From: an uncultured delta proteobacterium
GTDB taxonomy: Bacteria > Desulfobacterota > BSN033 > UBA1163
NCBI GenBank assembly: GCA_963827685.1
Contig: CAWHBU010000006.1
Span: forward strand, 32,001 to 96,000
DNA: 64,000 bases
Direction: 5' to 3'
The notes beneath the pieces were generated by a model, which did not search any database, was not told the origin of the DNA, and was given only the letters and a program-made list of their open reading frames with translations. The position numbers and the translations under genes are program-made. This document shows, piece by piece, positions 20,755 through 40,999 of the stretch; the stretch's first letter is position 1; every line of letters starts with the position of its first letter.

Positions 20755-21894
20755 ATGACAGCGATCGGGCAGTTGCAAGAATTCTACACCGAGAGGGGCA
20801 AGCGCGCCAGACAGTTGCACGAGTCGGGCAAGAAAGTGATCGGCTACTTTTGCTGCTTTGTGCCGGATGAGATCATCACCGCCTTCGATATGGTGCCCTA
20901 TCGTATCCAGGGCAGCCAATGCGACCCGATAGACCAAGCGGACGCTTACGTCGAGCCGATGGCCTGCCCTTACGCCAGGAGCTGCTTTAATCTGGCCCTC
21001 AATGGGAAATACGATTTCCTGGACGGTTTCGTGGCCCCCCACAGTTGCGATACGATAGAGCGCATGTATCACATCTGGCGTCATTCTATGCCTGCTCCTT
21101 TTTCCCATTTCATCAATGTCCCCCACATGATGGGACCAAGCTCAGACGAGTTCTACCGCAAGGAATTGGAGTTTTTCATCAAGGGACTTGAGACATGGTC
21201 CGGCAAGAAACTGAATACCGACAAGCTCAGAGGAGCAGTCAGGCTTTACAACGAGCGGCGAGCCGTCCTCAGAGAACTTTACGAATTGAGAAAACCGGAC
21301 CCGCCCCTTGTCTCCGGCACCGAGATCACCGTGGTGCTGGTGGCTGGCATGGGCATTCCCGCGGTGGAGCACATGGAACTTGTAAAAAAATTGATCGCTG
21401 AAATCAAGGCGTGTCCCCGGCCAAAGGCACAGAAGCTTCCCCGCATCTTTCTCTGGGGCAATGAGATAGATGACATTGCCTTCATCAAGCTCATCGAAGA
21501 GAGCGGTGCCTACGTGGTAATGGACGACCTTTGCACCGGCACCCGCTTCTTCTGGGACGACGTTCCGGAAACCAACGATCCCCTGGACGGTATTGTCAGC
21601 CGCTACATCCATACGCATTGCCCGCGGAGCTACATTCCCAAAGCGGAAACTCGACAGAAAGACTTGGAGAACCGTTACGGGTACATCCACCATTTTATCA
21701 AAGAATGGAATGGCAACGGGGTTATCTTCTACATCGTCCGCTACTGCGATACCTGCGAGCTGGAGGGGCCGGACCTGCGCGAATACCTGAACGAAATGAA
21801 ACTGCCGGTGCTGATGATAGAGGATGATTACTCCACGTCCACGATCGGCCAACTCCGCACCCGGGTCCAAGCGTTCCTGGAGATGATTGCTTAA
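20755..21894 (+). CDS. 2-hydroxyacyl-CoA dehydratase / class I benzoyl-CoA reductase subunit (BzdN/BcrC/HgdB-like)
   Basis: GYFCCFVPDEII, CPYARS, HSCD, DDLCTG, YCD, QLRTRVQAFLEM. Confidence 0.88.
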   Translation: MTAIGQLQEFYTERGKRARQLHESGKKVIGYFCCFVPDEIITAFDMVPYRIQGSQCDPIDQADAYVEPMACPYARSCFNLALNGKYDFLDGFVAPHSCDTIERMYHIWRHSMPAPFSHFINVPHMMGPSSDEFYRKELEFFIKGLETWSGKKLNTDKLRGAVRLYNERRAVLRELYELRKPDPPLVSGTEITVVLVAGMGIPAVEHMELVKKLIAEIKACPRPKAQKLPRIFLWGNEIDDIAFIKLIEESGAYVVMDDLCTGTRFFWDDVPETNDPLDGIVSRYIHTHCPRSYIPKAETRQKDLENRYGYIHHFIKEWNGNGVIFYIVRYCDTCELEGPDLREYLNEMKLPVLMIEDDYSTSTIGQLRTRVQAFLEMIA

Positions 21895-21905
21895 GGAGAG
21901 TAACC

Positions 21906-23195
21906 ATGGACGAAAAAGAACGGGCGAAAACAACAGCCGAAAAAGGGACTGAATCTGCCCGCAAGGTCAGGGCCATGGTGAAAAATATTTATCGGAGCGC
22001 CAATGAGGCCAAACCGCAGGGGAAAAAAGTGGCCTATTTCATGGTCGCCTCTCAGTACGATGAAATCGTGCGCGCCATGGACATAGTGCCGCTGCCTACC
22101 GAGAACTACGCCGGCCTGTGCGCAGCCAAACGCGAGATGGACCGCTTTCTTCTTAAGGCAGAGGCGGACGGCTACTCCCAGGTACTCTGCAGCTACGCTC
22201 GTATCGGCCTTGGCTTTGACAGCTTGAGAAAAGACCTGGGTGGTGTGCCGGAAGATTCCCCCGACGGCGGGATGCCTCAGCCAGACATGATGCTCGGTAG
22301 CAGCGGCGTCTGCGACCCGCGTTTTAAGTGGTACCAGGCAGCGGGGCGCTTCATGGAGGTGCCTACCTATAGTATTGATGTGGTATGGCCACCGGTTTTC
22401 AGTGACCTGAACGAGGTGCGCAGTCACTATATCAGATACCAGAAAGAGCAGTTCCATGGTTTGATTGCATTTCTCGAACAGCAGACCGGCAGAAAAATGG
22501 ACGAGGAACGCCTCTGGGAGACCATCCGTCTGGGTGACGAGGCCTGGCGGCTCTGGTACGAGATAGACCGGATGCGCGTGGCCGTGCCCGGCCCCATGCC
22601 AACCCAGGATCACTTCAACGCCATGGTGCCGGCTTACTACTACTGTGGCACCCAGGAGGCCGTGGACTTCTACAACGAGCTCTACGCCGAAGTGAAATCC
22701 AAAGTAGAAAACAAGATAGGGGTGGTCCCAAAAGAAAAGCACCGCATCCTCTATGGCGGCGGGCTTCCCCCATGGCACACCCTTTGGATCTTCAATTACT
22801 TTGAGGGCTTCGGCGCGGTTTTCGTAATTGAAAACGTATACCGCGGTTCTGACCCGGTGGAAGTCCCAAGTCACGTCAAGGACCCTGTTGAATACCTAGC
22901 CTGGCGCTCCTTCCTCCGCCTCACACAACGCCACGAGAAAGCCAAGGCCAATAGCGGTAATCCTATTGTTGAACGTTTACTGGAGATGATCAAGGATTAT
23001 CAGATTGACGGTGTGGTCTTCCACGCCTGCCGCTCCTGTCGGGCCACCACCATCGGGCAGGTGCATATCAAGAACCTGTTAAGCCAGTTTACCGATATCC
23101 CCATGATGCAGCTTGTCTCCGACATGGTAGATCTCAGGGATTACTCGGAAGCGCAGTGGAAGACACAGATCGGCGCCTTCATCGAGGCGCTCTAA
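21906..23195 (+). CDS. 2-hydroxyacyl-CoA dehydratase / class I benzoyl-CoA reductase subunit (BzdO/BcrB/HgdA-like)
   Basis: ENYAGLCAA, LCSYAR, CDPRFKW, HACRSCR, SDMVD. Confidence 0.88.
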   Translation: MDEKERAKTTAEKGTESARKVRAMVKNIYRSANEAKPQGKKVAYFMVASQYDEIVRAMDIVPLPTENYAGLCAAKREMDRFLLKAEADGYSQVLCSYARIGLGFDSLRKDLGGVPEDSPDGGMPQPDMMLGSSGVCDPRFKWYQAAGRFMEVPTYSIDVVWPPVFSDLNEVRSHYIRYQKEQFHGLIAFLEQQTGRKMDEERLWETIRLGDEAWRLWYEIDRMRVAVPGPMPTQDHFNAMVPAYYYCGTQEAVDFYNELYAEVKSKVENKIGVVPKEKHRILYGGGLPPWHTLWIFNYFEGFGAVFVIENVYRGSDPVEVPSHVKDPVEYLAWRSFLRLTQRHEKAKANSGNPIVERLLEMIKDYQIDGVVFHACRSCRATTIGQVHIKNLLSQFTDIPMMQLVSDMVDLRDYSEAQWKTQIGAFIEAL

Positions 23196-23229
23196 ACCGG
23201 CACCGCTTATGCTAAACGCTGCATTAAAA

Positions 23230-23426
23230 AGGTAGTTGGGTATGCCCCCAACCTTTACCAAGCGGTTCCTTACTATGTTTTATGGGTAACATGCGATGTC
23301 ACCTCAGGTGACCTTTGAAATATGTTTGGAAACGGAGTAGCAAAACGTTTAAAGGTCCCGCCCTGCCTTCGCCGGAGCGGCTTCGCGCAGGCAGGTGTAA
23401 AGGTTTCCCAGCACACCCAACTACCT
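23230..23426. repeat. About 200-bp element with imperfect terminal inverted repeats and a nested REP-like hairpin
   Basis: AGGTAGTTGGGTATGC / GCACACCCAACTACCT (15/16) plus AACCTTTAC / GTAAAGGTT. Internal CCTGCCT..AGGCAGG (23362-23395) and GTCACCT-C-AGGTGAC. Confidence 0.7.
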
Positions 23427-23494
23427 CTTAAAATGTTTTTTATTCAACGGTTGGGTTAAGCTCGGCAACCTGACGGAAAGGAACGAAAGACAGA

Positions 23495-24325
23495 ATGCCT
23501 TTTGCCGGCATTGACATCGGCTCCACCATGACCAAGGTGGTCATCATTGACAGGGACGGTATCATTCTATCTTCGGTGATCGGTCCCACCGGCGCCGAAC
23601 ATCGCCATTTGGCCCTCGAGGTCATGGGCGAAGCCATCACGAAAGCAGGCCTTGCCTTTGAGCAGCTTGATTTTATTGTGTCTACAGGCTACGGGCGCAT
23701 CAATGTCCCTTTTAACGATAAACAAATTACAGAGATCACCTGCCACAGCCGGAGCATCCGGGCACTTTTCCCCACCGCGCGCATCATCATCGATATCGGT
23801 GGGCAGGATTCTAAAGGAATCAAGCTGGACAGCGACGGCAAGGTAATGAACTTTATTATGAACGATAAGTGCGCTGCCGGTACCGGCCGTTTCCTCGAAG
23901 TGATTGCCGAAGCCCTGGGTATAGAGCTGACTGAGATGGGAGAGCTTTCTTTAAAGGCCAAGGAATACGTCAAAATTTCCAATACCTGCACCGTCTTTGC
24001 CGAGCATGAAGTGACGACCAGGCTCACAGAGGGAGCAACGATCCCGGAAATTGTAGCCGGCCTGCACGAGGCATTTGCCGCCCGGGTAGTCAATATGGTA
24101 CGGTCTCTTGGCATAGAAAAGGATGTGGTGGTCACGGGCGGGGGAGCCAAGAATATCGGATTGGTCAAAGCCATCGAGGACAAGGTAGGCTTTCCAGTGT
24201 TGGTGCCACCGGAGCCGCTCCTCACAGGTGCCCTGGGAGCAGCCCTGCTGGGCAGGGATTTCGTTGCCCGTGGCGTTACCCCTGATCGCCAGCGAAGATT
24301 AGAAGGAGTTACCTTCTTCAAATGA
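23495..24325 (+). CDS. ASKHA ATPase activase subunit (BcrA/BcrD/BzdPQ/HgdC family)
   Basis: GIDIGST, STGYGR, DIGGQDSK, MNDKCAAGTGRFL, SNTCTVFAE. Confidence 0.92.
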   Translation: MPFAGIDIGSTMTKVVIIDRDGIILSSVIGPTGAEHRHLALEVMGEAITKAGLAFEQLDFIVSTGYGRINVPFNDKQITEITCHSRSIRALFPTARIIIDIGGQDSKGIKLDSDGKVMNFIMNDKCAAGTGRFLEVIAEALGIELTEMGELSLKAKEYVKISNTCTVFAEHEVTTRLTEGATIPEIVAGLHEAFAARVVNMVRSLGIEKDVVVTGGGAKNIGLVKAIEDKVGFPVLVPPEPLLTGALGAALLGRDFVARGVTPDRQRRLEGVTFFK

Positions 24326-25110
24326 GCGATAACCAAAAATATTACGCTGGAGTTGATATCGGCTCTGCATTTATCAAAGCAGTGCTGGCATGCCACAAAC
24401 AAATCATGGCTTCTAAAATTGTGGGCTCTGGGGGCAACTATAAAGAAACGGCGCGGAGAGTTCTTGATGAAGTGCTATCCAAGGCCGGAGTTAGCCGTGA
24501 AAAGCTTTCCGGCATTGTGGTCACAGGTATTGGGGCAGAAAGCGCTCCCTTTCGGGCACGTCAGGTCTCCGATATTTCATGCCAGGCTGTGGGTTGCCGT
24601 TCTCTCTTCTCTTCCGCCCGCATTGTGATAGACATAGGCGGGCAGTTCACCAAGGCCGCCAAGCTGACGCCCAAGGGGAGAATTGCCAACTTTTTGATGA
24701 GCGAGAAGTGTGCCACCGGGTCCGGGCGTTTCTTACAGGTGATTGCCCGCATACTTCGCATCAACATAGAGGACATCGGTCCCCTTTCTCTAAAATCCCA
24801 AACGCCGGTTGAGTTTTCCACCAACTGTGCTGTCTTTGCCGAATCCGAGACTGTCTCCAGGATAGCTGAAGGTGCCCGGATGGAAGACATCCTGGCCGGG
24901 GTGCACCGTGCCATGGCAGCCAAGGTGGCCATGCTGGTGAAAGGGCTGAAAATGGAGCCGGACGTAGTGCTTACCGGCGGCGGGGGTGAGGATGCGGGGC
25001 TTGTCTTAGCCGTCAGCGAAGCGCTTGGAGTGAAAGTACTGGTGCCGGAGCAACCACGACTCACCGCCGCCATGGGCGCGGCCCGCCTTGCGGAAGAAGA
25101 CAAACCTTGA
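24322..25110 (+). CDS. Second ASKHA ATPase activase subunit
   Basis: GVDIGSA, DIGGQFTK, MSEKCATGSGRFL, STNCAVFAESE. ATGA overlap with the previous gene. Confidence 0.92.
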   Translation: MSDNQKYYAGVDIGSAFIKAVLACHKQIMASKIVGSGGNYKETARRVLDEVLSKAGVSREKLSGIVVTGIGAESAPFRARQVSDISCQAVGCRSLFSSARIVIDIGGQFTKAAKLTPKGRIANFLMSEKCATGSGRFLQVIARILRINIEDIGPLSLKSQTPVEFSTNCAVFAESETVSRIAEGARMEDILAGVHRAMAAKVAMLVKGLKMEPDVVLTGGGGEDAGLVLAVSEALGVKVLVPEQPRLTAAMGAARLAEEDKP

Positions 25111-26003: not shown

Positions 26004-26735
26004 ATGGAGTCTGTATCCTTATTCATCCCTTGCACGGTTGACCTTTTCCTTCCCCATATCGGAGAAGCAACAGTCTCCCTCCTCCGCCGGGTGGGGGTCA
26101 ATCCGATCTACCATCAGGAACAAACCTGCTGTGGCCAACCGGCCATCAACGCCGGATATCGTGAACAGGCGAAAAAAACGGCCAAACATTTTATCCAAGT
26201 CTTCGAGGATGACGAAAAGGTAATCAGTCCCTCCGGCTCCTGTGTAGGCATGGTCAAGGTTCACTATCCGGAACTTCTTGCTGAGGAGCCGCAGTGGCGG
26301 AAGCGGGCGGAAGAGCTGAGTCTCCGGGTCTATGAGTTCTCCCAGTACCTGGTCGATATCCTGAAAGTAGAAAATGTCGGCACCTCCTTTGAAGGAAAAG
26401 TGGCCTACCATGAATCCTGTCATATCCTACGCGGCTTGGGAGTTTCCGAACAGCCCAAAAAATTGATCAGTGCGGTTCAAGGGACCCAACTGGTTCCCTT
26501 GAATGCGGCGGATGCTTGCTGTGGGTTCGGAGGGGAGTTTGCCATTGATTATCCCGATATCTCCGAGTCGATGCTCAGGGATAAAGTGGAGAATTACTTA
26601 GCGAGCGGGGCCGACATTCTGCTCCTTTGCGAACCGGGTTGCCTTCTCAATATTGGCGGGTTTCTTAGCAGAAACTTTCCTGGGAAAAAAGTGATGCATC
26701 TGGCCAGTTTTTTAGCCCAACGCCAGGAGATTTGA
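26004..26735 (+). CDS. lutA: LutA/LldE-like CCG-domain Fe-S protein
   Basis: QTCCGQP, SPSGSC, YHESCH, CCGFGG. Confidence 0.88.
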   Translation: MESVSLFIPCTVDLFLPHIGEATVSLLRRVGVNPIYHQEQTCCGQPAINAGYREQAKKTAKHFIQVFEDDEKVISPSGSCVGMVKVHYPELLAEEPQWRKRAEELSLRVYEFSQYLVDILKVENVGTSFEGKVAYHESCHILRGLGVSEQPKKLISAVQGTQLVPLNAADACCGFGGEFAIDYPDISESMLRDKVENYLASGADILLLCEPGCLLNIGGFLSRNFPGKKVMHLASFLAQRQEI

Positions 26736-26926
26736 AAACACAGATGTCACAGAGAAGGTGCGATTCAGCTCTTTGAAACCGAATGGGATTGGCCCAACAG
26801 TTCCCGCCAAGGGCTGGACTTTCAAAGGTTTAGAATGCGGTCTTTTATACTTTTATGGTATTGAAATGGAAGAAGTGAAGGAACGCCGCACTTGGGCTTC
26901 TATGGTTAGATGATTAGAGGAGATGG

Positions 26927-28390
26927 ATGGAAGTTAAGACAGAACAATTTTCGGAGGTAGCCAGGGAGGGGCTGAAGAATGCCCACGCTCATGCCTTCCT
27001 GAAGTTGCGGGCCCCCATGATCCGGATGAGGCGGGAGACTGCGCTTTCAACATTCCCCGACGCTGCCGCAGCCCAGGCCTACGGGGCAGTCATCCGGGGA
27101 GAAGCGATTGCACGGCTTCCTGAACTCTTGGAGGAGTTTGAAAAAAATGCGCTGGCCAACGGAGCTAAAGTTTTTTGGGCCCGGGATGCCAACGAGGCGA
27201 ACCAATACATCGTAAATCTAACCAAGGAGAGGGGAATCAAATATGTGACCAAAGGGAAATCCATGGTGACAGAGGAAATAGGTCTCAATGAAGCTCTGGA
27301 GAAAAATGGCGTGAAGGCCTGGGAGACAGACCTCGGCGAGTTCATCATCCAGCTCTTGCATCTCCCCCCATTCCATATTGTGGGCCCTGCCATTAATGTA
27401 CCCGTCGAAAAGGTGCGGGATCTGTTCATGGAAAAAATCAACCTGAAGGAGCCGACATTGGATCCTATCCAGCTGGGCCATGCAGCTCGGATTTTCCTGC
27501 GGGACAAATTTCACCGGGTCGACATGGGCATTACGGGCGTGAACATAGCGGTAGCTGAAACCGGCACTATTATTAATGTAGAAAACGAAGGAAACATCCG
27601 CTTCACCAAATCATCCCCCCGCACGCAGATATCGGTGATGAGCCTGGAAAAAGTGGTCCCCACTTTGGAGGATGCTCTGCATTTGGTACGGCTCTTGTGT
27701 CGGAACTGTACCGGGCAAAAACTTTCGTGTTATGTTTCGATGGACAGCAGTCCTAAAAAAGGCGGCGAAATGGACGGACCGGAAGAACTCTTCATTGTCA
27801 TTGTCGATAATGGACGGTCCAAAATTTACTATGATGAAATCGCTCGTGAGGCGATGCGTTGCATCCGCTGCGGCGCCTGTTTGAATAGCTGCCCGGTTTA
27901 CCAGCAAATCGGGGGGTATGCCTATGGCTGGGCTTATTCAGGACCTATGGGCCAAGTTCTGAATCCGCTCCTTCTTGGGTTAGAGAGAACGCAGGATCTT
28001 TATCGGGCCACGACCCTTTGTGGGTCTTGCAAAAGCATCTGTCCGGTTGGTATTGATCATCCCAGTCTATTCCTTTATTACCGGGCGAAAGATGTATTGG
28101 GAGATGCAGCCTTGCGGTCCAAAAAACGCCCCGTGATGGAAAGAATTTTTTTCCGGTTATGGACCTGGGCCGTCAGCCGGTCCTGGTTGTGGAATGGGGG
28201 AGTTCGAATGGTCCGGCCTTTCATCAACAAGGAGGCGCATCAAGGAGTGCTCAGCAAAATAAAAGGCCTTTTCGGGGGATGGTTTAGAAGCAGGGATTTG
28301 CCCGCCATGGCTGAAAAGACTTTTCATGATCGTTGGAAAGAAAAACAGAAGGCAGAAGGCAGAAACCAGAAAGCGGAAGGCACGAGATAA
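26927..28390 (+). CDS. lutB: LutB/LldF-like LUD + 4Fe-4S protein
   Basis: KGKSMVTEE, ETDLGEFI, ENEGN, CIRCGACLNSCPVY. Confidence 0.92.
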   Translation: MEVKTEQFSEVAREGLKNAHAHAFLKLRAPMIRMRRETALSTFPDAAAAQAYGAVIRGEAIARLPELLEEFEKNALANGAKVFWARDANEANQYIVNLTKERGIKYVTKGKSMVTEEIGLNEALEKNGVKAWETDLGEFIIQLLHLPPFHIVGPAINVPVEKVRDLFMEKINLKEPTLDPIQLGHAARIFLRDKFHRVDMGITGVNIAVAETGTIINVENEGNIRFTKSSPRTQISVMSLEKVVPTLEDALHLVRLLCRNCTGQKLSCYVSMDSSPKKGGEMDGPEELFIVIVDNGRSKIYYDEIAREAMRCIRCGACLNSCPVYQQIGGYAYGWAYSGPMGQVLNPLLLGLERTQDLYRATTLCGSCKSICPVGIDHPSLFLYYRAKDVLGDAALRSKKRPVMERIFFRLWTWAVSRSWLWNGGVRMVRPFINKEAHQGVLSKIKGLFGGWFRSRDLPAMAEKTFHDRWKEKQKAEGRNQKAEGTR

Positions 28391-28399
28391 GAGGTTTAA
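28344..28399 (+). repeat. Degenerate heptamer tandem array at the lutB-lutC junction
   Basis: aacagaa ggcagaa ggcagaa accagaa agcggaa ggcacga gataaga ggtttaa. Confidence 0.65.
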
Positions 28400-28400
28400 A

Positions 28401-29072
28401 GTGGAACAAAGTGCGCGAGATGAAATTCTGGGTAAACTTAAGTCTACCCCGAAAAAATCAATACCTCCCCGACCGGATAGGCTCGTCCTGAGGGAGCTCT
28501 CTCTGGCCAGGGAGGAATTGATAGAGACTTTTTCGAAAAACCTTGTACAAGAAACAGGGATCGTCCATCGAGTCAAGGATCGCCGAGAAGCCCTGGAGAA
28601 ACTTTCTCAAATCGCCAAGGAAGAAGGATTGAGGAAGGTGATGGTCACTACGGATGACGTCGTGGCTTCGCTGAATTTAGCGGCCTGGGGGAAAGAAAAC
28701 GATGTTCGGGTCATGACTCCAAAGGATTTTGGCAACCGGGATTCTTTCAGGGATGCAGTCTTTGTGGAAGCCGATGCAGGGGTGACCGGGGCTGATTTCG
28801 CCGTCGCCGAGTCAGGAACGCTGGGCCTCATTCATAACGAGGACCAGGCGAGGTTAGTCTCTCTGGCTCCCATTCTGCACGTTGCTATTGTGCCGGTGAA
28901 AAGGATGGTGGCGGTCTATGAACAGGTGATGAAGGAAGTCTTTGGGAAAAAGGAGAACCTCCCCAGCCAATTCTGTTTCATCACTGGGCCGAGCATGACC
29001 GCGGATATCCGGGGAATACCGTTCAAAGGGATGCACGGACCAAGGAAAGTCATCGTAATTCTGCTTGGATAA
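28401..29072 (+). CDS. lutC: LutC/LldG-like LUD domain protein
   Basis: ARDEILGKL, AVAESGT, FITGPSMTADI..GMHGP. GTG start after GAGG. Confidence 0.88.
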   Translation: MEQSARDEILGKLKSTPKKSIPPRPDRLVLRELSLAREELIETFSKNLVQETGIVHRVKDRREALEKLSQIAKEEGLRKVMVTTDDVVASLNLAAWGKENDVRVMTPKDFGNRDSFRDAVFVEADAGVTGADFAVAESGTLGLIHNEDQARLVSLAPILHVAIVPVKRMVAVYEQVMKEVFGKKENLPSQFCFITGPSMTADIRGIPFKGMHGPRKVIVILLG

Positions 29073-29089
29073 AAATGGCGGAGAATGAT

Positions 29090-30331
29090 ATGAAGAAAAT
29101 CTCGATTCCCTCAAGGCTCTGGTATGAAAACAAAGAATGGGAGCTGACCTTCCCGGACCGGTGGGAAGTAGACAACCTAAATCCCCCTGGCTTTGATAAG
29201 CCTAAGCTCACTCCCGAAAAAATTAAGGAAAAGATTGGTCACCCTATCGAAGGACCTCCTTTGCAAGAAATAGCCAAGGGGAAGAAGCAGGCGGTCATCG
29301 TCTTTGATGATATGACCCGGCCGACGCCAGTCAAGGAAATGGCTCCTTATATTCTGGAATCCTTGCACAGGACCGGGATGAAGAAGGATCAGATCCGCTT
29401 TATTTGGGCGCTGGGGTCGCACGGAGTTTACAACATGATCGATGCCCGCAAGAAATTGGGGGATGAGATCGTGGAGAGTTATGCCGTTTACAACCACGAC
29501 CCCTTTCAAAACACAGTGCGGGTGGGACGGACTCCTACGGGAGTGGAGCTCTGGTTCAATCGGGAGTTCATGAGCTGTGATTTGAAGATTGGGATCGGAT
29601 GCATTACTCCTCACGTCCACGTGGGGTTTGGGGGCGGAGCCAAGATCATTCTTCCAGGAGTGGCTGGAATCGAAACGATCAACCAATTTCACAATCAACT
29701 CTACCGGGACCAAGCTCGAACCGGCCTGGGGAATTTTTTCAACAATATCATGCGGGCGGAATGTGATGCTGGCGGGGACGCTGTGGGTTTAAACTTCAAG
29801 GTCGATTGCCTGGTCAATCGTCGGGGAGAGATTACCAGCCTCTACGCCGGATCTTTCCGAGCCACCCATGCCGCCGGTGCAGAAGAAGGAAAAGGGCATT
29901 ACGGAATCCCTCATTCCAACGGATACGACCTGGCAATTTGCAACGCTTATGCTAAGGCCAATGAGTCGGCCATCGCCATCATTTTTGCGCTGACCTTGTT
30001 AAAACCCCAGGAAGGGGTGGCGGTGCTGATCTCCGACGCACCAGAGGGCCAGGTTTCTCACTATGTGATGCGGACTTGGGGAAGCGATTATGGCGGCCGC
30101 CATTTTTCTTCGAGGCCCAGAGGTCTTGCGCAAAAGCTGATCAAGAAACTGATTGTCATGGCCCCCTACCCCGATCGGACCAGTCTGGACATGATTTGCC
30201 ATGTCGATGATGCCCTCATCGTCAAGACCTGGCCCGAAGTCCTGGCCTTGATCGAAAGAGAATTTCCCGGAAGAGCAAAGGTGGCCGTGGTTCAGGACGG
30301 CACAATGATGCACATGCAAGGACCCGTTTAG
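29090..30331 (+). CDS. LarA-family nickel-pincer 2-hydroxyacid racemase/epimerase
   Basis: DDMTRPTP, ALGSH, PHVHVGFGGGAKIILPG, FHN. The His/His/Lys/His positions of LarA are retained. Confidence 0.85.
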   Translation: MKKISIPSRLWYENKEWELTFPDRWEVDNLNPPGFDKPKLTPEKIKEKIGHPIEGPPLQEIAKGKKQAVIVFDDMTRPTPVKEMAPYILESLHRTGMKKDQIRFIWALGSHGVYNMIDARKKLGDEIVESYAVYNHDPFQNTVRVGRTPTGVELWFNREFMSCDLKIGIGCITPHVHVGFGGGAKIILPGVAGIETINQFHNQLYRDQARTGLGNFFNNIMRAECDAGGDAVGLNFKVDCLVNRRGEITSLYAGSFRATHAAGAEEGKGHYGIPHSNGYDLAICNAYAKANESAIAIIFALTLLKPQEGVAVLISDAPEGQVSHYVMRTWGSDYGGRHFSSRPRGLAQKLIKKLIVMAPYPDRTSLDMICHVDDALIVKTWPEVLALIEREFPGRAKVAVVQDGTMMHMQGPV

Positions 30332-30339
30332 GAGTGATC

Positions 30340-30612
30340 ATGAAAGATAACATCCTCATCATTCATTCAACGGATAATGTCGCCGTCTCCCTGAAGACGC
30401 TAGGTGTTGGAGAGATAGCCGTTGCAAAAGGAATAGAAGGATTCCCGGCTTTGGAAGAAATACCCGCCAGCCACAAAATCGCTCTCCAAAATATTTCAAA
30501 AGGAGAGGAAATCATAAAATATGGAGAGATCGTGGCAGTCAGTACCCGGGATATCAAAAAGGGAGAATGGGTCCATACTCACAACCTTGAAAGCAAACGG
30601 TGGAAGAAATGA
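30340..30612 (+). CDS. SAF-domain small subunit of a UxaA/SuyA-type dehydratase
   Basis: DNVAV, HKIAL..I.KGE.IIKYG, GEWVHTHNL. Confidence 0.9.
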   Translation: MKDNILIIHSTDNVAVSLKTLGVGEIAVAKGIEGFPALEEIPASHKIALQNISKGEEIIKYGEIVAVSTRDIKKGEWVHTHNLESKRWKK

Positions 30613-31769
30613 ATGGGATCACTGGATACGAAAGAAAAAACGGGACATTCGGCATCCGCAACCACGTCCTGGTTCTACCTACGGTCTCCTGTGTTAACGG
30701 GGTGATCAACCGCATTTCACGGGAGGTGCCAGAGGCGGTCTGTCTCCCCCATGCCTATGGATGCGGTAGAGGAGGTCTCAGGGACATGGAAATTCTGTCC
30801 CGGATCCTCTCGGGCCTGGTGCATCATCCCAACGTCGGCGGAGCGGTCATCATTGGATTGGGCTGTGAGATTTCAAATACGAAAAGTCTGCTTCCCCTGA
30901 TCAAGGAGGCAGGCAAACCCATCGAGGTCTTTAATGCACAGGAGGATGGAGGTTCCCTGAAAACAGCGAAGAAAGCGGCCGCCGCTGCCCGCCGGATCCT
31001 ATCGGAAGTCAGCAGCCAGCCGAGGACTACGCTTCCTTGGGATAAGCTTCTGATCGCCATGGAATGCGGCGGTTCGGATGCCATGTCCGGCGTGACGGCC
31101 AACGTAGCCATGGGCGCTGTCTCGGACTGGCTGGTAGAAAAGGGAGCCACTGTGATTTTTGGTGAAAATACAGAGATGATCGGGACAGCCCATGTGCTCG
31201 CACGACGGGCGAAGAATGCTGAGGTGGCCAAACAGATTGAACAAATGATCGAGCGCGCTGAGAAATTAACCCAGGCGGTGATGGGAAATCTGGCGAGCAT
31301 GGTCATCTCCCCCGGCAATATGGATGGAGGCATGAGCACCATTGCAGAGAAATCGATGGGCTGCATCTTTAAAGGAGGCACCACCACGATCAACCAGGTG
31401 GTCGATTATGGCGAGGCTCCTTCGGAACGGGGGCTCATCTTGCAGGACGGGCCGGGTTACGATGGAGACTCCATGGCGGGGCTTGCGGCCAGCGGCTCTC
31501 AGCTTATGTTTTTTTCAACCGGCCGAGGCACCCCGGCCGGGTTTCCGGCTTTGCCCGTGATCAAGGTGGCCAGCAATACCAGAATATACGAGGCCATGAG
31601 AGATGATATGGACGTCAATGCGGGAACCTTGGTGGAAGGCCAGGATTTGAATGGATTGCGGGGAGAGATGATCGATTTGATGATCCGCGTGATCAACGGG
31701 GAAAAGACGAAGGCGGAAATCAACGGCATGGACGTGATCACGTTTATGACCGTCCATCCGCCGTTCTGA
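30609..31769 (+). CDS. UxaA/GarD/SuyB-family dehydratase/lyase catalytic subunit
   Basis: GIRNH, HAYGC, GLGCE, ECGGSD..SG.TAN, SPGN..GG, EKSMG, STGRG. Confidence 0.9.
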   Translation: MNGITGYERKNGTFGIRNHVLVLPTVSCVNGVINRISREVPEAVCLPHAYGCGRGGLRDMEILSRILSGLVHHPNVGGAVIIGLGCEISNTKSLLPLIKEAGKPIEVFNAQEDGGSLKTAKKAAAAARRILSEVSSQPRTTLPWDKLLIAMECGGSDAMSGVTANVAMGAVSDWLVEKGATVIFGENTEMIGTAHVLARRAKNAEVAKQIEQMIERAEKLTQAVMGNLASMVISPGNMDGGMSTIAEKSMGCIFKGGTTTINQVVDYGEAPSERGLILQDGPGYDGDSMAGLAASGSQLMFFSTGRGTPAGFPALPVIKVASNTRIYEAMRDDMDVNAGTLVEGQDLNGLRGEMIDLMIRVINGEKTKAEINGMDVITFMTVHPPF

Positions 31770-31825
31770 GGGTAAGGATAGTTCAGAGTAAAGACTTTTC
31801 TCCGAACTTTGACAAGAGGGAAAGT

Positions 31826-33502
31826 ATGGATCTAAAAAAGCACAGCAGAGTCTTTTCCGACGATGACCCGCTCTCCATGGTGCGGCGCTCCATGCTCTAT
31901 GCCTGCGGGTTCACCCACGAGGAAATCAAGCGCCCCATGGTTGCCGTAGTGAATACTTATAACGAGATGCACCCCGGTCACATGCATCTGAAAACCTTGG
32001 CTGAGCGGGTGAAAGCTGGCGTGCGAACGGCCGGCGGCCTGCCCACGGAATTTTGCACCCTTTCTCTTTGCGATGGGTTGGCCAACGGACATGAAGGAAT
32101 GAAATTCATCCTGCCCAGCCGCCAGGTCATTGCGGATTCTGTGGAACTCGGCTTGCGCGCCCATTGTTATGATGCCGCCGTGATGATCGGCTCCTGCGAC
32201 AAGATTCTTCCTGCGCTTCTCATCGCAGCCGCCAGGGTCGACATCCCGACGATCATCGTTACGGGTGGACCCATGCCCCGTGGTTACTGGGCAAGGGAGA
32301 AAATACAGGCTTCTGTATCGAATTTAGGGGAGATGGTCAGGAAGGTGTTTGCCGGGCACACATCAGCAGAAATACGCGAAGAGGCCTTGTCTTCGTTCTA
32401 CCCTTGCGCCGGGGCCTGCTGGGGGATGGGAACAGCCAATACCATGGCCTGCCTGTGTGAAGCCCTGGGAATGAGCCTGCCGGGAGACAGTACCGTCCCG
32501 GGAGTGATGGCCCAGAAAAGCCGGCTGGCTGAACGAGCCGGGGAACAAGTTATGGAGCTTCTAAATCAGGGGATTACGCCATTGAAAATCCTGACTCCCG
32601 CAAGTTTGGTAAACGCCTTAAAAGTAAATTTGGCCATCGGCGGGTCATTAAATACGGTTTTGCATTTGCCCGCGCTGGCGCACGAATTGGGGGTAAAGCT
32701 CGACTATTATGATTTTGACCGGCTCTCCCGGGTCGTTCCTCATTTAACGAACGTGGAGCCGTCGGGTCCTTTCTCGGTTGCAGATCTTGATAGAGCCGGC
32801 GGAATCCCTGGCGTGATGAAAACAATGGAACGTCTGCTGGACGATTCGGCGTTAACCGTGACGGGCCAAACGTTGGCCCAAAATCTACAATGGGCGGCTG
32901 TGTTCTCGCCGGAAATTATCCGGCCAATGACGGATCCTGTCCACCCTTACGGAGGGATTGCCATTCTTAAAGGTAACTTGGCCGAACGGGGGGCAGTCAT
33001 CAAACAGGTGGCGGTTAAAGAGGACCTGTGGCGCTTTACCGGGGAGGCCAGAGTGTTTAATTCGGAAGAAGATGCCCTGGCCGGCCTGGGCAGTGGCCAA
33101 ATCAAGAAAGGGCAGGTAGTGGTAATTCGCTACGAAGGTCCAAAGGGAGGACCGGGGATGCGTGAGATGGCTCTGTTCCGCAAGGCTTTAAAAATTGCCG
33201 GCATGGGCGATACGAACTACATCGTAACCGATGGCCGCTTTTCCGGTTACAGCGAAGGCCCCTCCATTGGCTACCTCTGTCCCGAAGCAGCCGAGGGGGG
33301 AACGATTGCGCTGGTAGAGAATGGGGACCCAATCGAGATCGATGTGGAGAATCGGTTTCTAAGATTGAAAATCCCAGAGAACGAATTGAAACGTAGGAGA
33401 GAAAACCTTGTCCATCCTCCGAAGAAATACCCAAAGGGTTATCTCGATATTTACGCCAGGATGGTGTCCTCAGCGGATCAGGGGGGCGTGATGGGGGGCT
33501 AA
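31826..33502 (+). CDS. ilvD: IlvD/Edd-family dihydroxy-acid (sugar acid) dehydratase
   Basis: HPGH, CDG, CDK, GACWGMGTANTM, YEGPKGGPGMREM, TDGRFSG. Confidence 0.88.
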   Translation: MDLKKHSRVFSDDDPLSMVRRSMLYACGFTHEEIKRPMVAVVNTYNEMHPGHMHLKTLAERVKAGVRTAGGLPTEFCTLSLCDGLANGHEGMKFILPSRQVIADSVELGLRAHCYDAAVMIGSCDKILPALLIAAARVDIPTIIVTGGPMPRGYWAREKIQASVSNLGEMVRKVFAGHTSAEIREEALSSFYPCAGACWGMGTANTMACLCEALGMSLPGDSTVPGVMAQKSRLAERAGEQVMELLNQGITPLKILTPASLVNALKVNLAIGGSLNTVLHLPALAHELGVKLDYYDFDRLSRVVPHLTNVEPSGPFSVADLDRAGGIPGVMKTMERLLDDSALTVTGQTLAQNLQWAAVFSPEIIRPMTDPVHPYGGIAILKGNLAERGAVIKQVAVKEDLWRFTGEARVFNSEEDALAGLGSGQIKKGQVVVIRYEGPKGGPGMREMALFRKALKIAGMGDTNYIVTDGRFSGYSEGPSIGYLCPEAAEGGTIALVENGDPIEIDVENRFLRLKIPENELKRRRENLVHPPKKYPKGYLDIYARMVSSADQGGVMGG

Positions 33503-33693: not shown

Positions 33694-33722
33694 TTGACAT
33701 AGAATTCCGTATTTCGTATATT
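33694..33722 (+). promoter_or_regulatory. Sigma70 promoter of the first Liv operon
   Basis: TTGACA-N17-TATATT, with an AATACGG (33678-84) / CCGTATT (33707-13) inverted repeat around the -35. Confidence 0.7.
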
Positions 33723-34008: not shown

Positions 34009-35376
34009 ATGAAATCGATCGGCAAGGGTATTTTCATTCTCGTATGTATTCTTTCTTTTTTCTCTGTGACAACCTTTAGCCCATCCACGGCGATGGCCTT
34101 CGAGCCACTCAAGGGGGATCTTTCAAAATATGATCCCAATAATCAAACCTTTCCTACTTCGGGGGATACAATTAAGTTCGCGATCTGGGATGCTTGTACC
34201 GGGGCGAACGCCTATCTCTGCCAGGCCTACTCTGCCTTGCTTGGGTTTGTTGCCCAGGATATCAACTCCCAGGGCGGAATCAAGGTAGACGGCAAGATGA
34301 AGAAGATCCAGATCGTCAAGGTCGATACCCAGTCGGCGCCTGACCCGGCCAAACGAGCACTTGAAAAGGCCATCCTGCAAGACAAGATTATCGCCTTTTC
34401 TGGAGTAGCCGGCACCCACATTGCCAAGATAGGCCAGAACCTGGCCAAAGAATATAAAGTCATTTTCGTCAACCTGTCCGCTTATTCAGATGAACTGAGT
34501 ATGCTTCCGGATTTTAATGAATATTACTTTCGCACCTGCGGGACCGCTTCCACTTCCGCCAAGAGTCTGGCTGTTTTTTACAAAAACCGACCGGAAACGA
34601 AATTTTACATTTTAGCCCAGGATTATGTTTGGGGACACGAATCTGCGGGCGTCTTCAAAAAGACGATAAAAGAAGCCAAACGCAATGCCCAGATCGTCGG
34701 TGAAGAGTACTTTCCTCTGTTCACCAAGGACTTTGCCCCCTATCTGGAAAAGGTCAGGGCTTCCGGGGCGGAGATGGTTGTCACTATGGCCTGGGGGGCG
34801 GATAACGAGAACCTGATCAAGCAATCGAGACAACTTGGCTTGAAAAGTCCCTTGAAACCCGATCTTTTTATTCCCATGGCCAGTCCTTTTCTGGACGATA
34901 CCCGCCCCCTGGAGGTTATCGGCGGTCCGGCAGGCCGAGGCTTGGTCCTGTGCACGGATTTCTACCTGGACCGTAGGGTGGCCAATGTCAAGAAATTGAC
35001 TGATACATGGAACAAATTGTGGAAGACATGGAAAGACCCCTATGATTCAGTGCTTTACCAATGGCCCGGCGGCGGCTGGTATAGAAACCTTACGGGGTAC
35101 TACTGGTTTTTCCAGGTATTGCAAAAGGCCGGCAGCACCGATCCGCAGAAGATCATCGCCGCCTGGGAAGGAGACACCCTCGACTTTTTCGGCTGGAAAC
35201 ATTATATGCGGCCCGATGATCATCAGGTTATAGCAGACCGTCCCATCGCTGAAATGGCGTTCCCCAATACCTGGGACCGCCCCACATGCGCAATGGTTGG
35301 CGATGCTGCCTGGATACCGGCCAAGAACTGCATGCCCGCCTTCGATGAAAAACTCAAAGGACGTGTAAAAAAATAG
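34009..35376 (+). CDS. ABC transporter substrate-binding protein (LivJ/K-like)
   Basis: AAGGAGG RBS, signal peptide, DINSQGGI, QDYVWG, KDFAPYL, MRPDDHQ. Confidence 0.88.
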   Translation: MKSIGKGIFILVCILSFFSVTTFSPSTAMAFEPLKGDLSKYDPNNQTFPTSGDTIKFAIWDACTGANAYLCQAYSALLGFVAQDINSQGGIKVDGKMKKIQIVKVDTQSAPDPAKRALEKAILQDKIIAFSGVAGTHIAKIGQNLAKEYKVIFVNLSAYSDELSMLPDFNEYYFRTCGTASTSAKSLAVFYKNRPETKFYILAQDYVWGHESAGVFKKTIKEAKRNAQIVGEEYFPLFTKDFAPYLEKVRASGAEMVVTMAWGADNENLIKQSRQLGLKSPLKPDLFIPMASPFLDDTRPLEVIGGPAGRGLVLCTDFYLDRRVANVKKLTDTWNKLWKTWKDPYDSVLYQWPGGGWYRNLTGYYWFFQVLQKAGSTDPQKIIAAWEGDTLDFFGWKHYMRPDDHQVIADRPIAEMAFPNTWDRPTCAMVGDAAWIPAKNCMPAFDEKLKGRVKK

Positions 35377-35395
35377 GCCATCTTTAAACCCTGGT

Positions 35396-35434
35396 AAAAG
35401 CTCGCCTCCACTTAAAGTCGGAGGCGGGTTTTTT
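35396..35434 (+). terminator. Stem-loop/terminator after the SBP gene
   Basis: CTCGCCTCC..GGAGGCGGG followed by a T run. Confidence 0.7.
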
Positions 35435-35477
35435 AGCAGGGTTCTCTTTGGACTCTTTTTAGCAGGAGGATATCGAG

Positions 35478-36350
35478 ATGAGCCCGACCGCCGTGTTGTA
35501 TGTTGCTCAAGCCATTCACGGCCTGGCCTACGGAATGTTGCTTTTTCTGGTAGCATCCGGTCTTACCCTAATCTTCGGCATGATGGGGATTCTAAACATG
35601 GCCCATGCCTCTTTTGCCATGCTGGCCGCCTATTTCTGTTTCCAGGTTTTACAAATGACCGGAAATTTTTGGGCGGCGCTATTGATTGCACCGGTTTTTG
35701 CCGGGATCTGTGGGGTTCTGACGGAGCGCTTTCTCTTGAGGACCGTGCATAAACACGGCCATCTGGCCGAACTTCTCATAACCGTGGGAATCATGGCGCT
35801 CATCTTGGAACTCGTCAAACTCTTCTGGGGCACCGAGAGCCTGGTTATCAAGATACCTCCGAGTTTGAGCGGACTGTTGAAAATTGCCGGTCTGACCTAC
35901 CCCGTCTATCGCCTTTTCGTTATCGGGGTATCCATCGTGATTTTGGGTTTGATGGCTTTGATTCTATATAAGACCCGTTTGGGCAAAATCGTTCGGGCGG
36001 CCGTTTCCGACGCGGATATGGTCAGTGCCCTGGGGATTAATACACCCCTTGTCTTTATGCTGGTTTTTGGAATCGGGATATGGCTGGCCGGCGTGGCCGG
36101 GGCCGTGGCCGGCCCACTCCTGACCGTGTTTCCCGGAATGGCCGACCAATTGGGCATGGATGCCTTTGTGGTGGTGGTTGTGGGAGGGTTCGGAAGTCTT
36201 TTAGGGGCTTTTATTGTCGCCTTGTTTCTTGGAGAACTAAATGCCTACGGCATCCAGTTTATTCCCCGTCTTGCACCCGTACTGATGTTTGCCTTCATGG
36301 CCCTTGTATTAGCCTTTAAACCGATGGGCCTATTTGGAGAAAGAGAATGA
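35478..36350 (+). CDS. livH: Branched-chain amino acid-type ABC permease
   Basis: GLTLIFGMMGILNMAH, T..G..VRA, VVVGGFGS. Confidence 0.9.
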   Translation: MSPTAVLYVAQAIHGLAYGMLLFLVASGLTLIFGMMGILNMAHASFAMLAAYFCFQVLQMTGNFWAALLIAPVFAGICGVLTERFLLRTVHKHGHLAELLITVGIMALILELVKLFWGTESLVIKIPPSLSGLLKIAGLTYPVYRLFVIGVSIVILGLMALILYKTRLGKIVRAAVSDADMVSALGINTPLVFMLVFGIGIWLAGVAGAVAGPLLTVFPGMADQLGMDAFVVVVVGGFGSLLGAFIVALFLGELNAYGIQFIPRLAPVLMFAFMALVLAFKPMGLFGERE

Positions 36351-37324
36351 GGAATAAACTGTATAAGTGGATTCTATGGGGAGTGCTCGTTATCCTTGTA
36401 GCCATCCTTCCGCGTCTGGTCAGCTTCTACTATCTCAACTTCTTTATAGCCTTTGCCATTTTTTCCTTGTATGCCGTCACTCTCAACTTGCTCCTGGGCT
36501 ATATGGGGGTCCTCAGCTTTGGCCACGCTATGTTTTTCGGCACAGGGGCCTATGTGGCGGCGCTGGCCTTGAGGCATATACAGGGATTTCCCCTGTTACC
36601 GACAATCCTAATGGGCGGATTGGCCGGCGGCCTGTTGGCCTTGATGTTAAGTCCTTTGCTGGTGAGAGTAAGCGGGACCGCCTTTGCCATGTTGACCCTG
36701 GCCTTTGGCCAGCTCATCTTTGTCGTCGCCCTGAAATATAGAGAGGTAACCGGCGGGGAGGACGGCATTGGGGGATATCCCATTCCGCCACTTAACATCC
36801 CCGGTGTGCTGTCTATTGATATGACCGATAAGATAAACTTTTATTATTTTGCCGTTGCCGTTGTAGCTATATGCCTTTACATCTTGTGGTTTTATACCAA
36901 GACTCCCTTCGGCAGCCTCGTCGTGGGCATCCGGGATAATGCCCTGCGAATGGACTACCTGGGTTTTAATCTCCCGCAGACCAAGGCGATCAATTTGATC
37001 GTTTGTGGGGCCTTTGCCGGGATTGCCGGTGCGGTTCATGCCCTGCTGATGAAACTGGTTTCCACTGTGGGCGTATTGGACATACATACCTCCTTCAGAC
37101 CCATCGTGATGGCCTATGTCGGGGGTGTAGGGAGCTTTTTCGGCCCGATTATCGGCTCTGGTGTCCTTCACATTTTAGAAGATGTGGTTATTAGATTTAC
37201 TGAGCGGATCGGCCTGGTAAACGGCACGATCTTCATTCTGGTGGTCTTATTCGCGCCAATGGGGCTTGTCGGTCTTTTCAGAGCAGCCAAGGAAAAATGG
37301 TTTCATAAACGGAAGGCTTCATGA
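36347..37324 (+). CDS. livM: Branched-chain amino acid-type ABC permease
   Basis: LLGYMGVLSFGHAMFFG, TLAFGQ, TGGEDG. Confidence 0.9.
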   Translation: MRNKLYKWILWGVLVILVAILPRLVSFYYLNFFIAFAIFSLYAVTLNLLLGYMGVLSFGHAMFFGTGAYVAALALRHIQGFPLLPTILMGGLAGGLLALMLSPLLVRVSGTAFAMLTLAFGQLIFVVALKYREVTGGEDGIGGYPIPPLNIPGVLSIDMTDKINFYYFAVAVVAICLYILWFYTKTPFGSLVVGIRDNALRMDYLGFNLPQTKAINLIVCGAFAGIAGAVHALLMKLVSTVGVLDIHTSFRPIVMAYVGGVGSFFGPIIGSGVLHILEDVVIRFTERIGLVNGTIFILVVLFAPMGLVGLFRAAKEKWFHKRKAS

Positions 37325-38076
37325 ACATTCTGGAAACCAAAAGACTCTATCACGATTTCAGCGGATTGGAAGTGCTTTTCAATGTCAACCTTCAGGTTGA
37401 AGAAGGAGAGCGACACGCCGTCATTGGGCCCAACGGCGCAGGAAAAACAACGCTCTTCAACGTCATCACCGGGACTTACTCGCCGAGCCGGGGACAGGTG
37501 TTCTTCAAAGGAAGGGAGATCACCGGGGCCAGGCCACACGAGCTGACGCGCCTCGGAGTGGGACGCTCCTTTCAGATCACCAGCACCTTTAATCGGCTGA
37601 CCACTTTCCAGAACATTCGACTGGCCATCCTTTCTAAAAAGGAAATCCGTTTCCATTTGTTCCGCAAGGTCGACAAGATGGAGGACATCACCAAACAGAC
37701 CGACGAGGTATTAAGGCGGATCAACCTGGACCGGGAGCGGGACATGCCCGCTGGTATGCTGTCATACGGGAAACATCGTTCTCTGGAAATCAGCCTGGCC
37801 CTGGCGACAGACCCGGACCTGATCATGTTGGACGAGCCCACGGCTGGCATGTCCCGGGATGAAACGCATTATGCCGTGGAGCTGATCAGGCGGCTTACCG
37901 AGGGCAAAACCGTGGTCATCATTGAGCATGATATGGATGTCGTCTTCTCCCTGGCAGACCGCATCACGGTCCTCCACCATGGGGAGATTTTAGCGACAGG
38001 CCCTCCGCTTCAGATCCGGCAGAATCAGGCGGTGAAGGATGCCTACCTGGGAGAAACGGAAGTTGAATCCGCATAG
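37321..38076 (+). CDS. livG: ABC ATPase
   Basis: GPNGAGKT, LDEPTAG, IEHDM, AYLG. Confidence 0.92.
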   Translation: MNILETKRLYHDFSGLEVLFNVNLQVEEGERHAVIGPNGAGKTTLFNVITGTYSPSRGQVFFKGREITGARPHELTRLGVGRSFQITSTFNRLTTFQNIRLAILSKKEIRFHLFRKVDKMEDITKQTDEVLRRINLDRERDMPAGMLSYGKHRSLEISLALATDPDLIMLDEPTAGMSRDETHYAVELIRRLTEGKTVVIIEHDMDVVFSLADRITVLHHGEILATGPPLQIRQNQAVKDAYLGETEVESA

Positions 38077-38172
38077 CGCATGGCGCAGAGCACATTGCGT
38101 AAGAAGAAGTTTAGAATCTTTTTCAAGTTTTTAACCTCATGCGCAGTGCTCTATGCGCTCTGCGCTTTCTGC
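38070..38172. repeat. CGCATAG-type heptamer inverted-repeat element
   Basis: CGCATAG CGCATGG CGCAGAG CACATTG, AT-rich loop, then CTATGCG CTCTGCG. Confidence 0.8.
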
Positions 38173-38183
38173 AAGGAGCAGAG

Positions 38184-40905: not shown

Positions 40906-40999
40906 TGGGGGAAAAAAGCAAAAGATAAAAAACAACAAACAAGTGTGGGCTCATCCATTAAAAGGCACCTGTCGAACCTATAATTAGCGATACATGCCA

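Follow-up and report, generated by a model that had tools for sequence, protein, structure and literature searches.

Genes for LarA homologues (LarAHs) have been found next to dehydratase genes in more than one setting: LarAH group 5 (Mar1) was tabulated in 2020 beside altronate dehydratase (COG2721), and group 22 beside IlvD (COG0129) (PMC7583248). The acid-sugar dehydratases of the UxaA/GarD family, namely UxaA, GarD and the D-arabinonate, D-idonate and heteromeric L-fuconate enzymes (the last mentioned as unpublished data), combine SAF and GD_AH domains with four cysteines, which passages of Watanabe 2019 (PMC6336799) describe as conserved across these enzymes, SuyB excepted. Here we describe a seven-gene run, lutA-lutB-lutC-larA-uxaS-uxaL-ilvD, at positions 26004-33502 of a 64,000-nt stretch of DNA (the window, which holds no N bases) from an uncultured delta proteobacterium, in which a LarA-superfamily protein is encoded between a LutABC-type dehydrogenase and a split, two-subunit UxaA-family enzyme. 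We propose, with about an even chance of being right, that anaerobic, Syntrophales-like Thermodesulfobacteriota have in lutABC-larA-uxaS-uxaL a conserved module for catabolism, which would funnel small non-sugar 2-hydroxy acids to 2-oxo acids; it probably turns both mirror forms of such acids into keto acids.

The seven open reading frames (ORFs) are all co-oriented on the plus strand. The lutA gene (26004..26735) encodes the CCG-domain subunit of a LUD-type 2-hydroxy-acid dehydrogenase, with two CCG motifs (PF02754 twice, 104.8 bits), and is followed after 191 bp by lutB (26927..28390), coding for the Fe-S LUD subunit with LUD, Fer4 and LutB_C domains (PF02589, PF13183 and PF11870); a PDB search with LutB gave no match. 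lutC (28326..29072, the true start of which may be the GTG at 28401) overlaps lutB and encodes a LUD subunit (PF02589, 114.5 bits). Only 2 bp separate it from larA (29075..30331, start possibly 29090), whose product carries the Lar_N domain (PF09861, 182.7 bits) and is assigned to the AF0049/Deba_0774 branch of LarAH group 23, and another 2 bp lie between larA and uxaS (30334..30612, or from an ATG at 30340), which encodes the SAF-domain small subunit (PF08666) of a split UxaA/GarD-family dehydratase. The overlapping uxaL (30600..31769) encodes its four-cysteine large subunit, with GD_AH_second and GD_AH_C domains (PF04295 and PF20629), and ilvD (31826..33502), for an IlvD-family dihydroxy-acid dehydratase with ILVD_EDD_N/C domains and subfamily motifs, follows after 56 bp. 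A first-pass annotation, made from the letters alone, had described one co-oriented run, tightly packed from lutB to uxaA, encoding a LUD dehydrogenase, a LarA-domain protein, a two-subunit UxaA-family enzyme and an IlvD/Edd dehydratase; the gene layout and the Pfam matches agree with it on each of these points.

The same genes come together in other genomes. A scan of GTDB with a LarA alignment gave 551 confirmed matches, the best 80 of which form the set of loci used here, with gene presence scored by tblastn; the close relatives are metagenome-assembled genomes of Thermodesulfobacteriota/Syntrophales type. lutB/C were found in 19 of the 80 loci and uxaS/L in 17, with 14 having both, so that the expected conservation of the cluster holds for its lut, larA and split uxaA parts. 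Twelve of these 14 loci keep the window order and two are permuted (L008 and L019), uxaS adjoins uxaL in the loci that have both, and the co-occurrence of lut and uxa has a Fisher p of 5e-9 over 79 tree rows. The order lutC-larA-uxaS, present in 12/80 loci at about 70-90% LarA identity, is beyond chance, and a Dehalococcoidia locus (L075) reads uxaS-uxaL-larA-frhB-iorA. In L038 (6995-12822) the module is present with many frameshifts in lutA, lutB, lutC, larA and uxaL, which are probably long-read assembly errors.

The window LarA has the fold and most of the active site of its superfamily. An AlphaFold2 model built from a 32-sequence alignment (predicted local distance difference test, pLDDT, 88.3) matches LarA 8ezf with Z 43.1 and a root-mean-square deviation of 2.7 over 391 aligned residues. 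In an alignment of 79 clade proteins (the window LarA and those of 78 of the 80 loci, L038 and L043 being left out as short), the residues that bind the cofactor nickel-pincer nucleotide (NPN), R75, K184 and H200, and the catalytic D72, H108 and H174 of Lactobacillus plantarum LarA are invariant (79/79), corresponding in the window protein to R82, K190, H206, D79, H116 and H180. The motifs had been called intact on first reading, which is true of these six residues but not of K298, listed as catalytic in the sections of Desguin 2020 that deal with it (PMC7583248): its position is I300, A301 or I303 in the window LarA, depending on the alignment method, and no lysine occurs at columns 300, 301 or 303 in any of the 79 clade proteins, against K298 in 9/9 canonical LarAs. 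The clade has invariant residues of its own, E297, G325, Q326 and H329, as well as K294 in 78/79 proteins. With K298 replaced and K-x-x-E and G-Q-x-x-H-Y motifs present, the protein fits the AF0049/Deba_0774 branch, the motifs having been compared by eye.

UxaSL likewise belongs to a known superfamily, by its SAF and GD_AH domains and its four cysteines, and forms a group apart within it. C31, C55, C89 and C156 of UxaL are invariant in 134/134 relatives (120 protein matches and 14 locus proteins, the fragments L019 and L038 being left out), and the UxaLs of the module make up one clade with support 100/99. Identity is 31-41% to the references other than SuyB, reaching 41% with split UxaAs, and the GarD model TIGR03248 scores UxaL at 230.7 against a cut-off of 730.85, the gene here being split rather than encoding a single chain. 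At positions where most of the 13 references have R232, N/Q235, P236 and E249, the UxaL clade has A, V, I and A; Q57 has become R. These substituted positions (A232, V235, I236, A249 and R57) may line the pocket. Among the 120 closest UxaL matches, 36 carry the JGI name altronate dehydratase large subunit and six are named UxaA family hydrolase; "altronate dehydratase" and "sulfolactate lyase" are both likely mis-annotations of this protein.

Speaking for the funnel are the joint presence of lut and uxa in 14/80 loci, the replacement of R232, N/Q235 and E249 by A, V and A, the lack of any sugar-acid or sulfonate marker near uxa, the acyl-CoA catabolic setting of the window, and the partner genes that recur around the LarA clade, which are of the types also present in a phenylpyruvate/phenyllactate cluster of Desulfococcus multivorans. 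Markers for SuyZ, TctC, FAH, DHDPS-type aldolase, KdgT, GucD, GarK, GarR, UxaC, ExuT and the enolase family were found neither in the 80 loci nor in the window, and ten marker queries for a sugar-acid pathway (2-keto-3-deoxy acid enzymes and transporters) found nothing in the window or in the 17 uxa loci. Pfam scans of the loci (cluster representatives plus 143 further ORFs, out of 1,204) and marker searches show which genes recur near the LarA clade: iorA in 15 of the 80 loci, frhB-like genes in 13, hgdA/B in 12, CoA-transferase in 8, D-2-hydroxyacid dehydrogenase in 7, a thiamine diphosphate (ThDP) enzyme whose best PDB matches are benzoylformate decarboxylases (E about 1e-33) in 5, diaminopimelate dehydrogenase in 5, aldehyde:ferredoxin oxidoreductase (AFOR) in 4 and Ldh2 in 4; at least one of ten partner marker genes lies within 3.5 kb of larA in 45/80 loci. 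The recurrent partners (IorAB, Hgd, D-hydroxyacid dehydrogenase and the decarboxylase-like enzyme) suggest a funnel that starts from non-sugar 2-hydroxy and 2,3-dihydroxy acids and leads to 2-oxo acids.

In the proposed scheme the group-23 LarA, its nickel-pincer cofactor presumably made elsewhere in the genome, would invert C2, and LutABC would form the 2-oxo acid by oxidising the L-2-hydroxy acid. The iron/four-cysteine UxaSL would dehydrate an L-configured (2S) 2,3-dihydroxy acid with a short or non-polar tail; candidate substrates are L-glycerate, (2S,3R)-2,3-dihydroxybutyrate, a branched dihydroxy acid and an arylglycerate, and the expected products (pyruvate, 2-oxobutyrate, or a branched or aryl 2-oxo acid) could be used without an aldolase. 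The 2-oxo acids may then pass to IorAB-type oxidoreductases, or to the ThDP decarboxylase together with AFOR, partners that are seen in relatives. UxaA-type enzymes, in our reading, take 2S,3R and IlvD/Edd-type enzymes 2R substrates; the IlvD paralogue, whether added here or kept where relatives lack it, may take the 2R isomer. Of the new 2-hydroxy-acid pathway first suggested for this run, what stands is a conserved module of subfamilies with no known assay and a possible glycerate-like substrate, while its sulfolactate version was rejected and its aldonate version is unsupported. If the proposal is true, the module would show how syntrophic and sediment anaerobes take up both enantiomers of fermentation-derived hydroxy acids.

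Several results weigh against such a funnel. Only 4-5 independent pairs stand behind the lut-uxa link, which does not suffice for a sign test, and when lut-uxa, uxa-ior and uxa-hgd were tested on phylogenetically independent pairs, these were likewise too few to give support either way; taken plainly, uxa and ior do not co-occur significantly (p 0.17). The absence of K298 is a difficulty for the inversion step, LarAHs lacking it being considered in parts of Desguin 2020 (PMC7583248) as proteins that may not invert stereocentres and may carry out another hydride reaction, and genomic context is said in the same source to have often failed to predict LarAH activity. None of the 80 loci contains larB, larC or larE, nor does the window, as the first-pass annotation had noted; these tblastn searches used L. 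plantarum LarB/C/E (for which the positive control passed), Rhizobium LarC and LarE and Rhodovastum LarC, and covered loci rather than whole genomes. The changed UxaL positions can be assigned to the pocket only tentatively (a single-sequence fold reached pLDDT 39.3 and was not used), and Arg57, invariant beside Cys55 and gained in the UxaL clade, could bind a second carboxylate. IorA (613 against 651) and IorB (164 against 206) score below their equivalog cut-offs, and 28/80 loci have no tallied partner marker, 52/80 having at least one. A bolder extension of the funnel, by which the K298-less LarA carries the nickel-pincer cofactor but has new chemistry (racemisation of aryl or amino-acid-derived 2-hydroxy acids in a rebuilt pocket, or hydride shuttling between a 2-hydroxy and a 2-oxo acid) and UxaSL is the first UxaA-family dehydratase for a non-sugar, non-sulfonate dihydroxy acid such as L-glycerate or an arylglycerate, is put forward tentatively and is on the whole improbable; the two enzymes would then make up an anaerobic route, so far undescribed, of uncultured Syntrophales and their relatives.

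A dicarboxylate route, with LarA as tartrate epimerase or malate racemase and UxaSL as the dehydratase that makes oxaloacetate from D-tartrate, is unlikely. The best NCBIfam model for the window LarA is the malate racemase LarAH6 and its best PDB profile match is Mar2 (E 6.6e-52); group 5, whose member Mar1 is given as active on malate and tartrate in parts of PMC11770544, has altronate dehydratase genes as neighbours (PMC7583248), Arg57 is invariant in UxaL, and Arg342 is present in 70/79 LarAs. The scores are, however, far under the cut-offs, 197.8 against 500 for LarAH6 and 174.6 against 462 for LarAH5 (LarAH10 reaches 153 against 540), and the alpha-14 lysine of the Mar proteins falls in a poorly aligning region where it cannot be placed. 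W358 and T359, the substrate positions used in the pertinent sections of Urdiain-Arraiza 2024 (PMC11770544), cannot be placed either because that LarA loop is rebuilt: the region is shortened, three alignments disagree on it and model pLDDT is low at about 321-350. There is no TctC marker in the 80 loci, and IorAB, Hgd and the ThDP decarboxylase do not suit dicarboxylates as partners.

Slightly less probable is plain lactate use, with LarA as lactate racemase, LutABC as L-lactate dehydrogenase, and uxaSL and ilvD as unrelated neighbours. L-specificity of LutABC is established for lactate. The CCG, LUD plus Fe-S and LUD genes stand here in the order of LutABC/LldEFG, lut occurs without uxa near the LarA clade in 5/80 loci, LutABC is induced by lactate in Desulfococcus multivorans according to portions of PMC5109826, and promiscuity towards lactate and glycerate is frequent among LarAs, as parts of PMC11770544 report. 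Against this, LutB narrowly misses the L-lactate-specific equivalog TIGR00273 (411.5 against 444.8), and the 80 loci and the window contain no L-lactate permease, unlike the lutABC-lldP arrangement given for D. multivorans in the same portions. The lactate racemase loop F175/F176 reads V181/H182 in the window LarA, K298 is missing, and the lactate racemase model NF033504 scores 185.5 against a cut-off of 460; in addition, uxaSL adjoins larA despite permutations of gene order and in a second phylum.

Doubtful, and more so, is the idea that LarA without K298 is a nickel-pincer hydride shuttle, a transhydrogenase between 2-hydroxy and 2-oxo acids rather than a racemase. It would account for the loss of K298 throughout a clade with invariant cofactor ligands and newly invariant E297, G325-Q326 and H329; it takes up the other hydride reaction considered for K298-less proteins in those parts of Desguin 2020 (PMC7583248), has a precedent for intermolecular NPN hydride transfer in another fold (NphT, in the relevant part of PMC13524815), and suits the occurrence of both hydroxy-acid and oxo-acid enzymes among the partners of the clade. 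Both catalytic histidines, which are needed for stereo-inversion, are nevertheless invariant, K294 may replace K298, and product exchange has no positive sign in the data.

The first-pass annotation had raised, as one of two possibilities, an epimerase with two stereo-complementary dehydratases for a small aldonate or glycerate-like acid; in its strict form this is an aldonate epimerase feeding two sugar-acid dehydratases, one UxaA-type and one IlvD/Edd-type. Both dehydratase families are indeed encoded together in this genome, but the pairing is not conserved. IlvD passes TIGR00110 (657.2, cut-off 618.15) with its Cys, Asp, Lys and Ser motifs conserved, and lies below the sugar-acid dehydratase cut-offs (443.5 against 882; 272.7 against 708). 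Among the 80 loci ilvD occurs once, in L021, as a 43% identical paralogue 6.7 kb upstream on the same strand; it was not found downstream of uxaL in any of the 13 loci whose sequence continues for 1.75 kb or more past uxaL, and it is absent from L035, the closest fully covered relative (87% LarA identity), which is syntenic from hgdA to livF. ilvD was therefore rejected as a core gene of the module. A single ilvD in 1.26 Mb of locus sequence roughly matches the chance expectation, if genomes of ~4 Mb with 1-3 paralogues are assumed. The relatives of IlvD drop from 85% to 57% identity within 120 clusters, occur in several phyla and share motifs of their own, a spread that suggests a patchy paralogue; the window ORFs that were annotated or read include no ilv neighbours, and the third-codon-position GC content of ilvD (0.62) is like that of its neighbours and gives no signal of horizontal transfer. 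IlvD is probably a lineage-specific addition and a non-housekeeping paralogue.

An aldonate pathway is unlikely, and in its strict form, with both dehydratases at work, highly so. D-Arabinonate, D-altronate and L-fuconate are substrates of UxaA-family enzymes, and D-xylonate and L-arabinonate of IlvD/Edd enzymes, according to parts of PMC6336799; split UxaA genes are found in sugar-acid clusters on plasmids, and the altronate dehydratase names of the UxaL relatives and the same-strand ilvD paralogue of L021 point in the same direction. An aldonate substrate remains unsupported because no 2-keto-3-deoxygluconate-type aldolase, FAH, KdgT or sugar-acid kinase marker occurs in the 17 uxa loci, a GarL-like aldolase being present in only four of the 80 loci, all without uxa, and the hexonate epimerase LarAH model scores the window LarA at 19.9 against a cut-off of 500.

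The other possibility first raised, sulfolactate racemisation by LarA ahead of a sulfite-releasing SuyAB sulfo-lyase, is extremely improbable and was rejected: UxaSL shares the two-subunit layout of SuyAB, and the SuyAB routes covered in parts of 10.1101/2023.08.01.551581 and PMC11193023 do require an S-to-R inversion step, but that step is made there by dehydrogenase pairs and not by LarA, UxaL has all four cysteines where SuyB lacks three, and heteromeric architecture is also reported for the non-sulfonate L-fuconate dehydratase (PMC6336799, in part). The SuyB reference, from the suyA-suyB-exporter locus of Paracoccus ferrooxidans (L090), was assigned by gene order and published SuyB motifs, and at 30% it has the lowest identity to UxaL of the 13 references. 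An approximately unbiased (AU) test, fixed before the tree was seen, rejects placing the module UxaLs in a single clade with the SuyB of Paracoccus and a SuyB-like protein of Haloarcula (p 0.0165); SuyZ and TctC markers are lacking nearby, and 0/42 named relatives are called sulfo-lyase.

Around the LarA clade, several other arrangements recur. An frhB-like gene with iorA/iorB, or iorAB alone, adjoins larA in nine loci (L011, L019, L043, L059, L066-L069 and L075), and this is the most widely spread partner link, found in Chloroflexota and deltaproteobacterial loci. In L006, L017, L040, L047, L050 and L063 (also L042, L044 and L046) larA is divergent from hgdB-hgdA, mostly with short-chain dehydrogenase/reductase (SDR) or activator genes next and with FadD ligases in the neighbourhood; a CoA-transferase/GNAT fusion is often encoded downstream of larA. 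meso-Diaminopimelate dehydrogenase follows uxaL directly in L020, L021, L022, L026 and L049 (TIGR01921, above cut-off for L020) and may be another 2-oxo-acid-forming enzyme or a mere lysine gene. In the Dehalococcoidia loci L061, L064, L065 and L068, the neighbours of larA are genes for an HpcH/GarL-like aldolase and for an Ldh2-family dehydrogenase whose best model is L-sulfolactate dehydrogenase (243.5 against a cut-off of 500), and in L073 (11104-12399) larA is directly followed by a gene for aconitase X, another hydroxy-acid dehydratase family.

The window as a whole is an acyl-CoA catabolic island, with ligases, enoyl-CoA hydratases, acyl-CoA dehydrogenases, LivK-type transporters, AFOR, and HgdAB with two activators. 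Upstream of the run, on the plus strand (20755..25110), an HgdB/HgdA-type pair of the class I benzoyl-CoA reductase/2-hydroxyacyl-CoA dehydratase family and two different activator ATPase genes form a four-gene layout like that of class I benzoyl-CoA reductase; the best PDB match of HgdB is BzdN (E 1.5e-56), with scores under the bzdN, bcrC and hadC cut-offs, and L035 shows synteny for hgdA and the two activator genes. A DUF169 gene (25088-25912) lies between the activators and lutA, its place being taken in L035 by genes for an alpha/beta hydrolase, a Fer4-nitroreductase and an SDR. Downstream, also on the plus strand (34009..42886), are genes for a LivKHMGF-type ABC transporter (syntenic in L035), an acyl-CoA ligase and AFOR, preceded by a plus-strand promoter-like site at 33694..33722 (11/12 consensus match, the best in the scan), which suggests that the gene unit ends after ilvD; the promoter/terminator scan of the window gave a weak signal near shuffle level (17 promoter sites against 12.6 +/- 3.5 in shuffles). 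These upstream and downstream genes are taken as context and do not belong to the core of the module. An Rfam scan of the 64 kb gave zero matches. On the minus strand (47905-50609), inside a second LivK-type transporter cluster, two adjacent ORFs of ~450 aa resemble class III CoA-transferase subunits, as judged by eye from the translation.

Among known systems, the phenylpyruvate/phenyllactate cluster of D. multivorans (PMC5109826) is close in partner types: CoA ligases, a predicted R-phenyllactate dehydratase with activator, a putative phenylpyruvate reductase and IorA3 are the kinds of genes that recur around the LarA clade, an analogy of gene type and not of orthology, and the cluster rows covered there include neither LarA nor UxaA. 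LutABC/LldEFG shares the three-gene set and differs from the window genes by the LutB score and the adjoining permease. SuyAB has a small SAF subunit and a large subunit of ~390 aa, as does UxaSL, but a different cysteine pattern and tree position, and no sulfite exporter lies near UxaSL. The acid-sugar dehydratases of the UxaA/GarD family are set apart from UxaSL by its separate clade, its five replaced residues and the lack of sugar-acid genes nearby. For LarA, the closest described proteins are AF0049 (Archaeoglobus fulgidus) and Deba_0774 (Desulfarculus baarsii), which keep D, R, H, H, K and H and replace K298 as here, Deba_0774 also having like motifs around K294/E297 and G325-Q326-H329, compared by eye in printed rows of Dataset S2 (PMC7583248). 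Within the rows of that dataset listed for group 23, 11/14 keep K298, among them Isosphaera pallida LarAH23, which in the parts of Desguin 2020 concerned is the sole member assayed and was inactive in seven assays; the group is tabulated as of unknown function and without context genes (PMC7583248), so that what the present loci add to its record is a recurring gene context for the K298-less branch.

Groups 5 and 22 resemble the window in that a LarA homologue adjoins a UxaA- or IlvD-family dehydratase, and an independent LarA-UxaA pairing is seen on plasmid pSPTER of Sporomusa termitida (L088, 971-8149), where an enolase-family gene and TctCBA are followed by a group-22-like LarA and a split UxaA. 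With such LarA-UxaA and LarA-IlvD pairings known since 2020, the type of arrangement is not new. The subfamilies, in contrast, differ: the LarA is of another kind than in groups 5 and 22 (by the LarAH5 score, and tblastn of the Sporomusa LarA against the window and the 80 loci gave no match), the UxaL belongs to another clade, and LutABC stands in place of the Tct transporter. In the literature covered, from which most subscription papers are absent, no description of this module and no assay of either the K298-less AF0049/Deba_0774 branch or the UxaL clade was found. K298-less LarA homologues were flagged in 2020 as possible enzymes of other reactions (PMC7583248, in part), and the recurring partners now narrow the panel of substrates; if the funnel proposed here is true, the UxaA family, known for sugar acids and sulfolactate, would gain a member whose substrate is a small or non-polar dihydroxy acid. 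What is new is the combination of a K298-less LarA branch, a separate UxaA clade and LutABC, both enzyme subfamilies being ones with no known assay.

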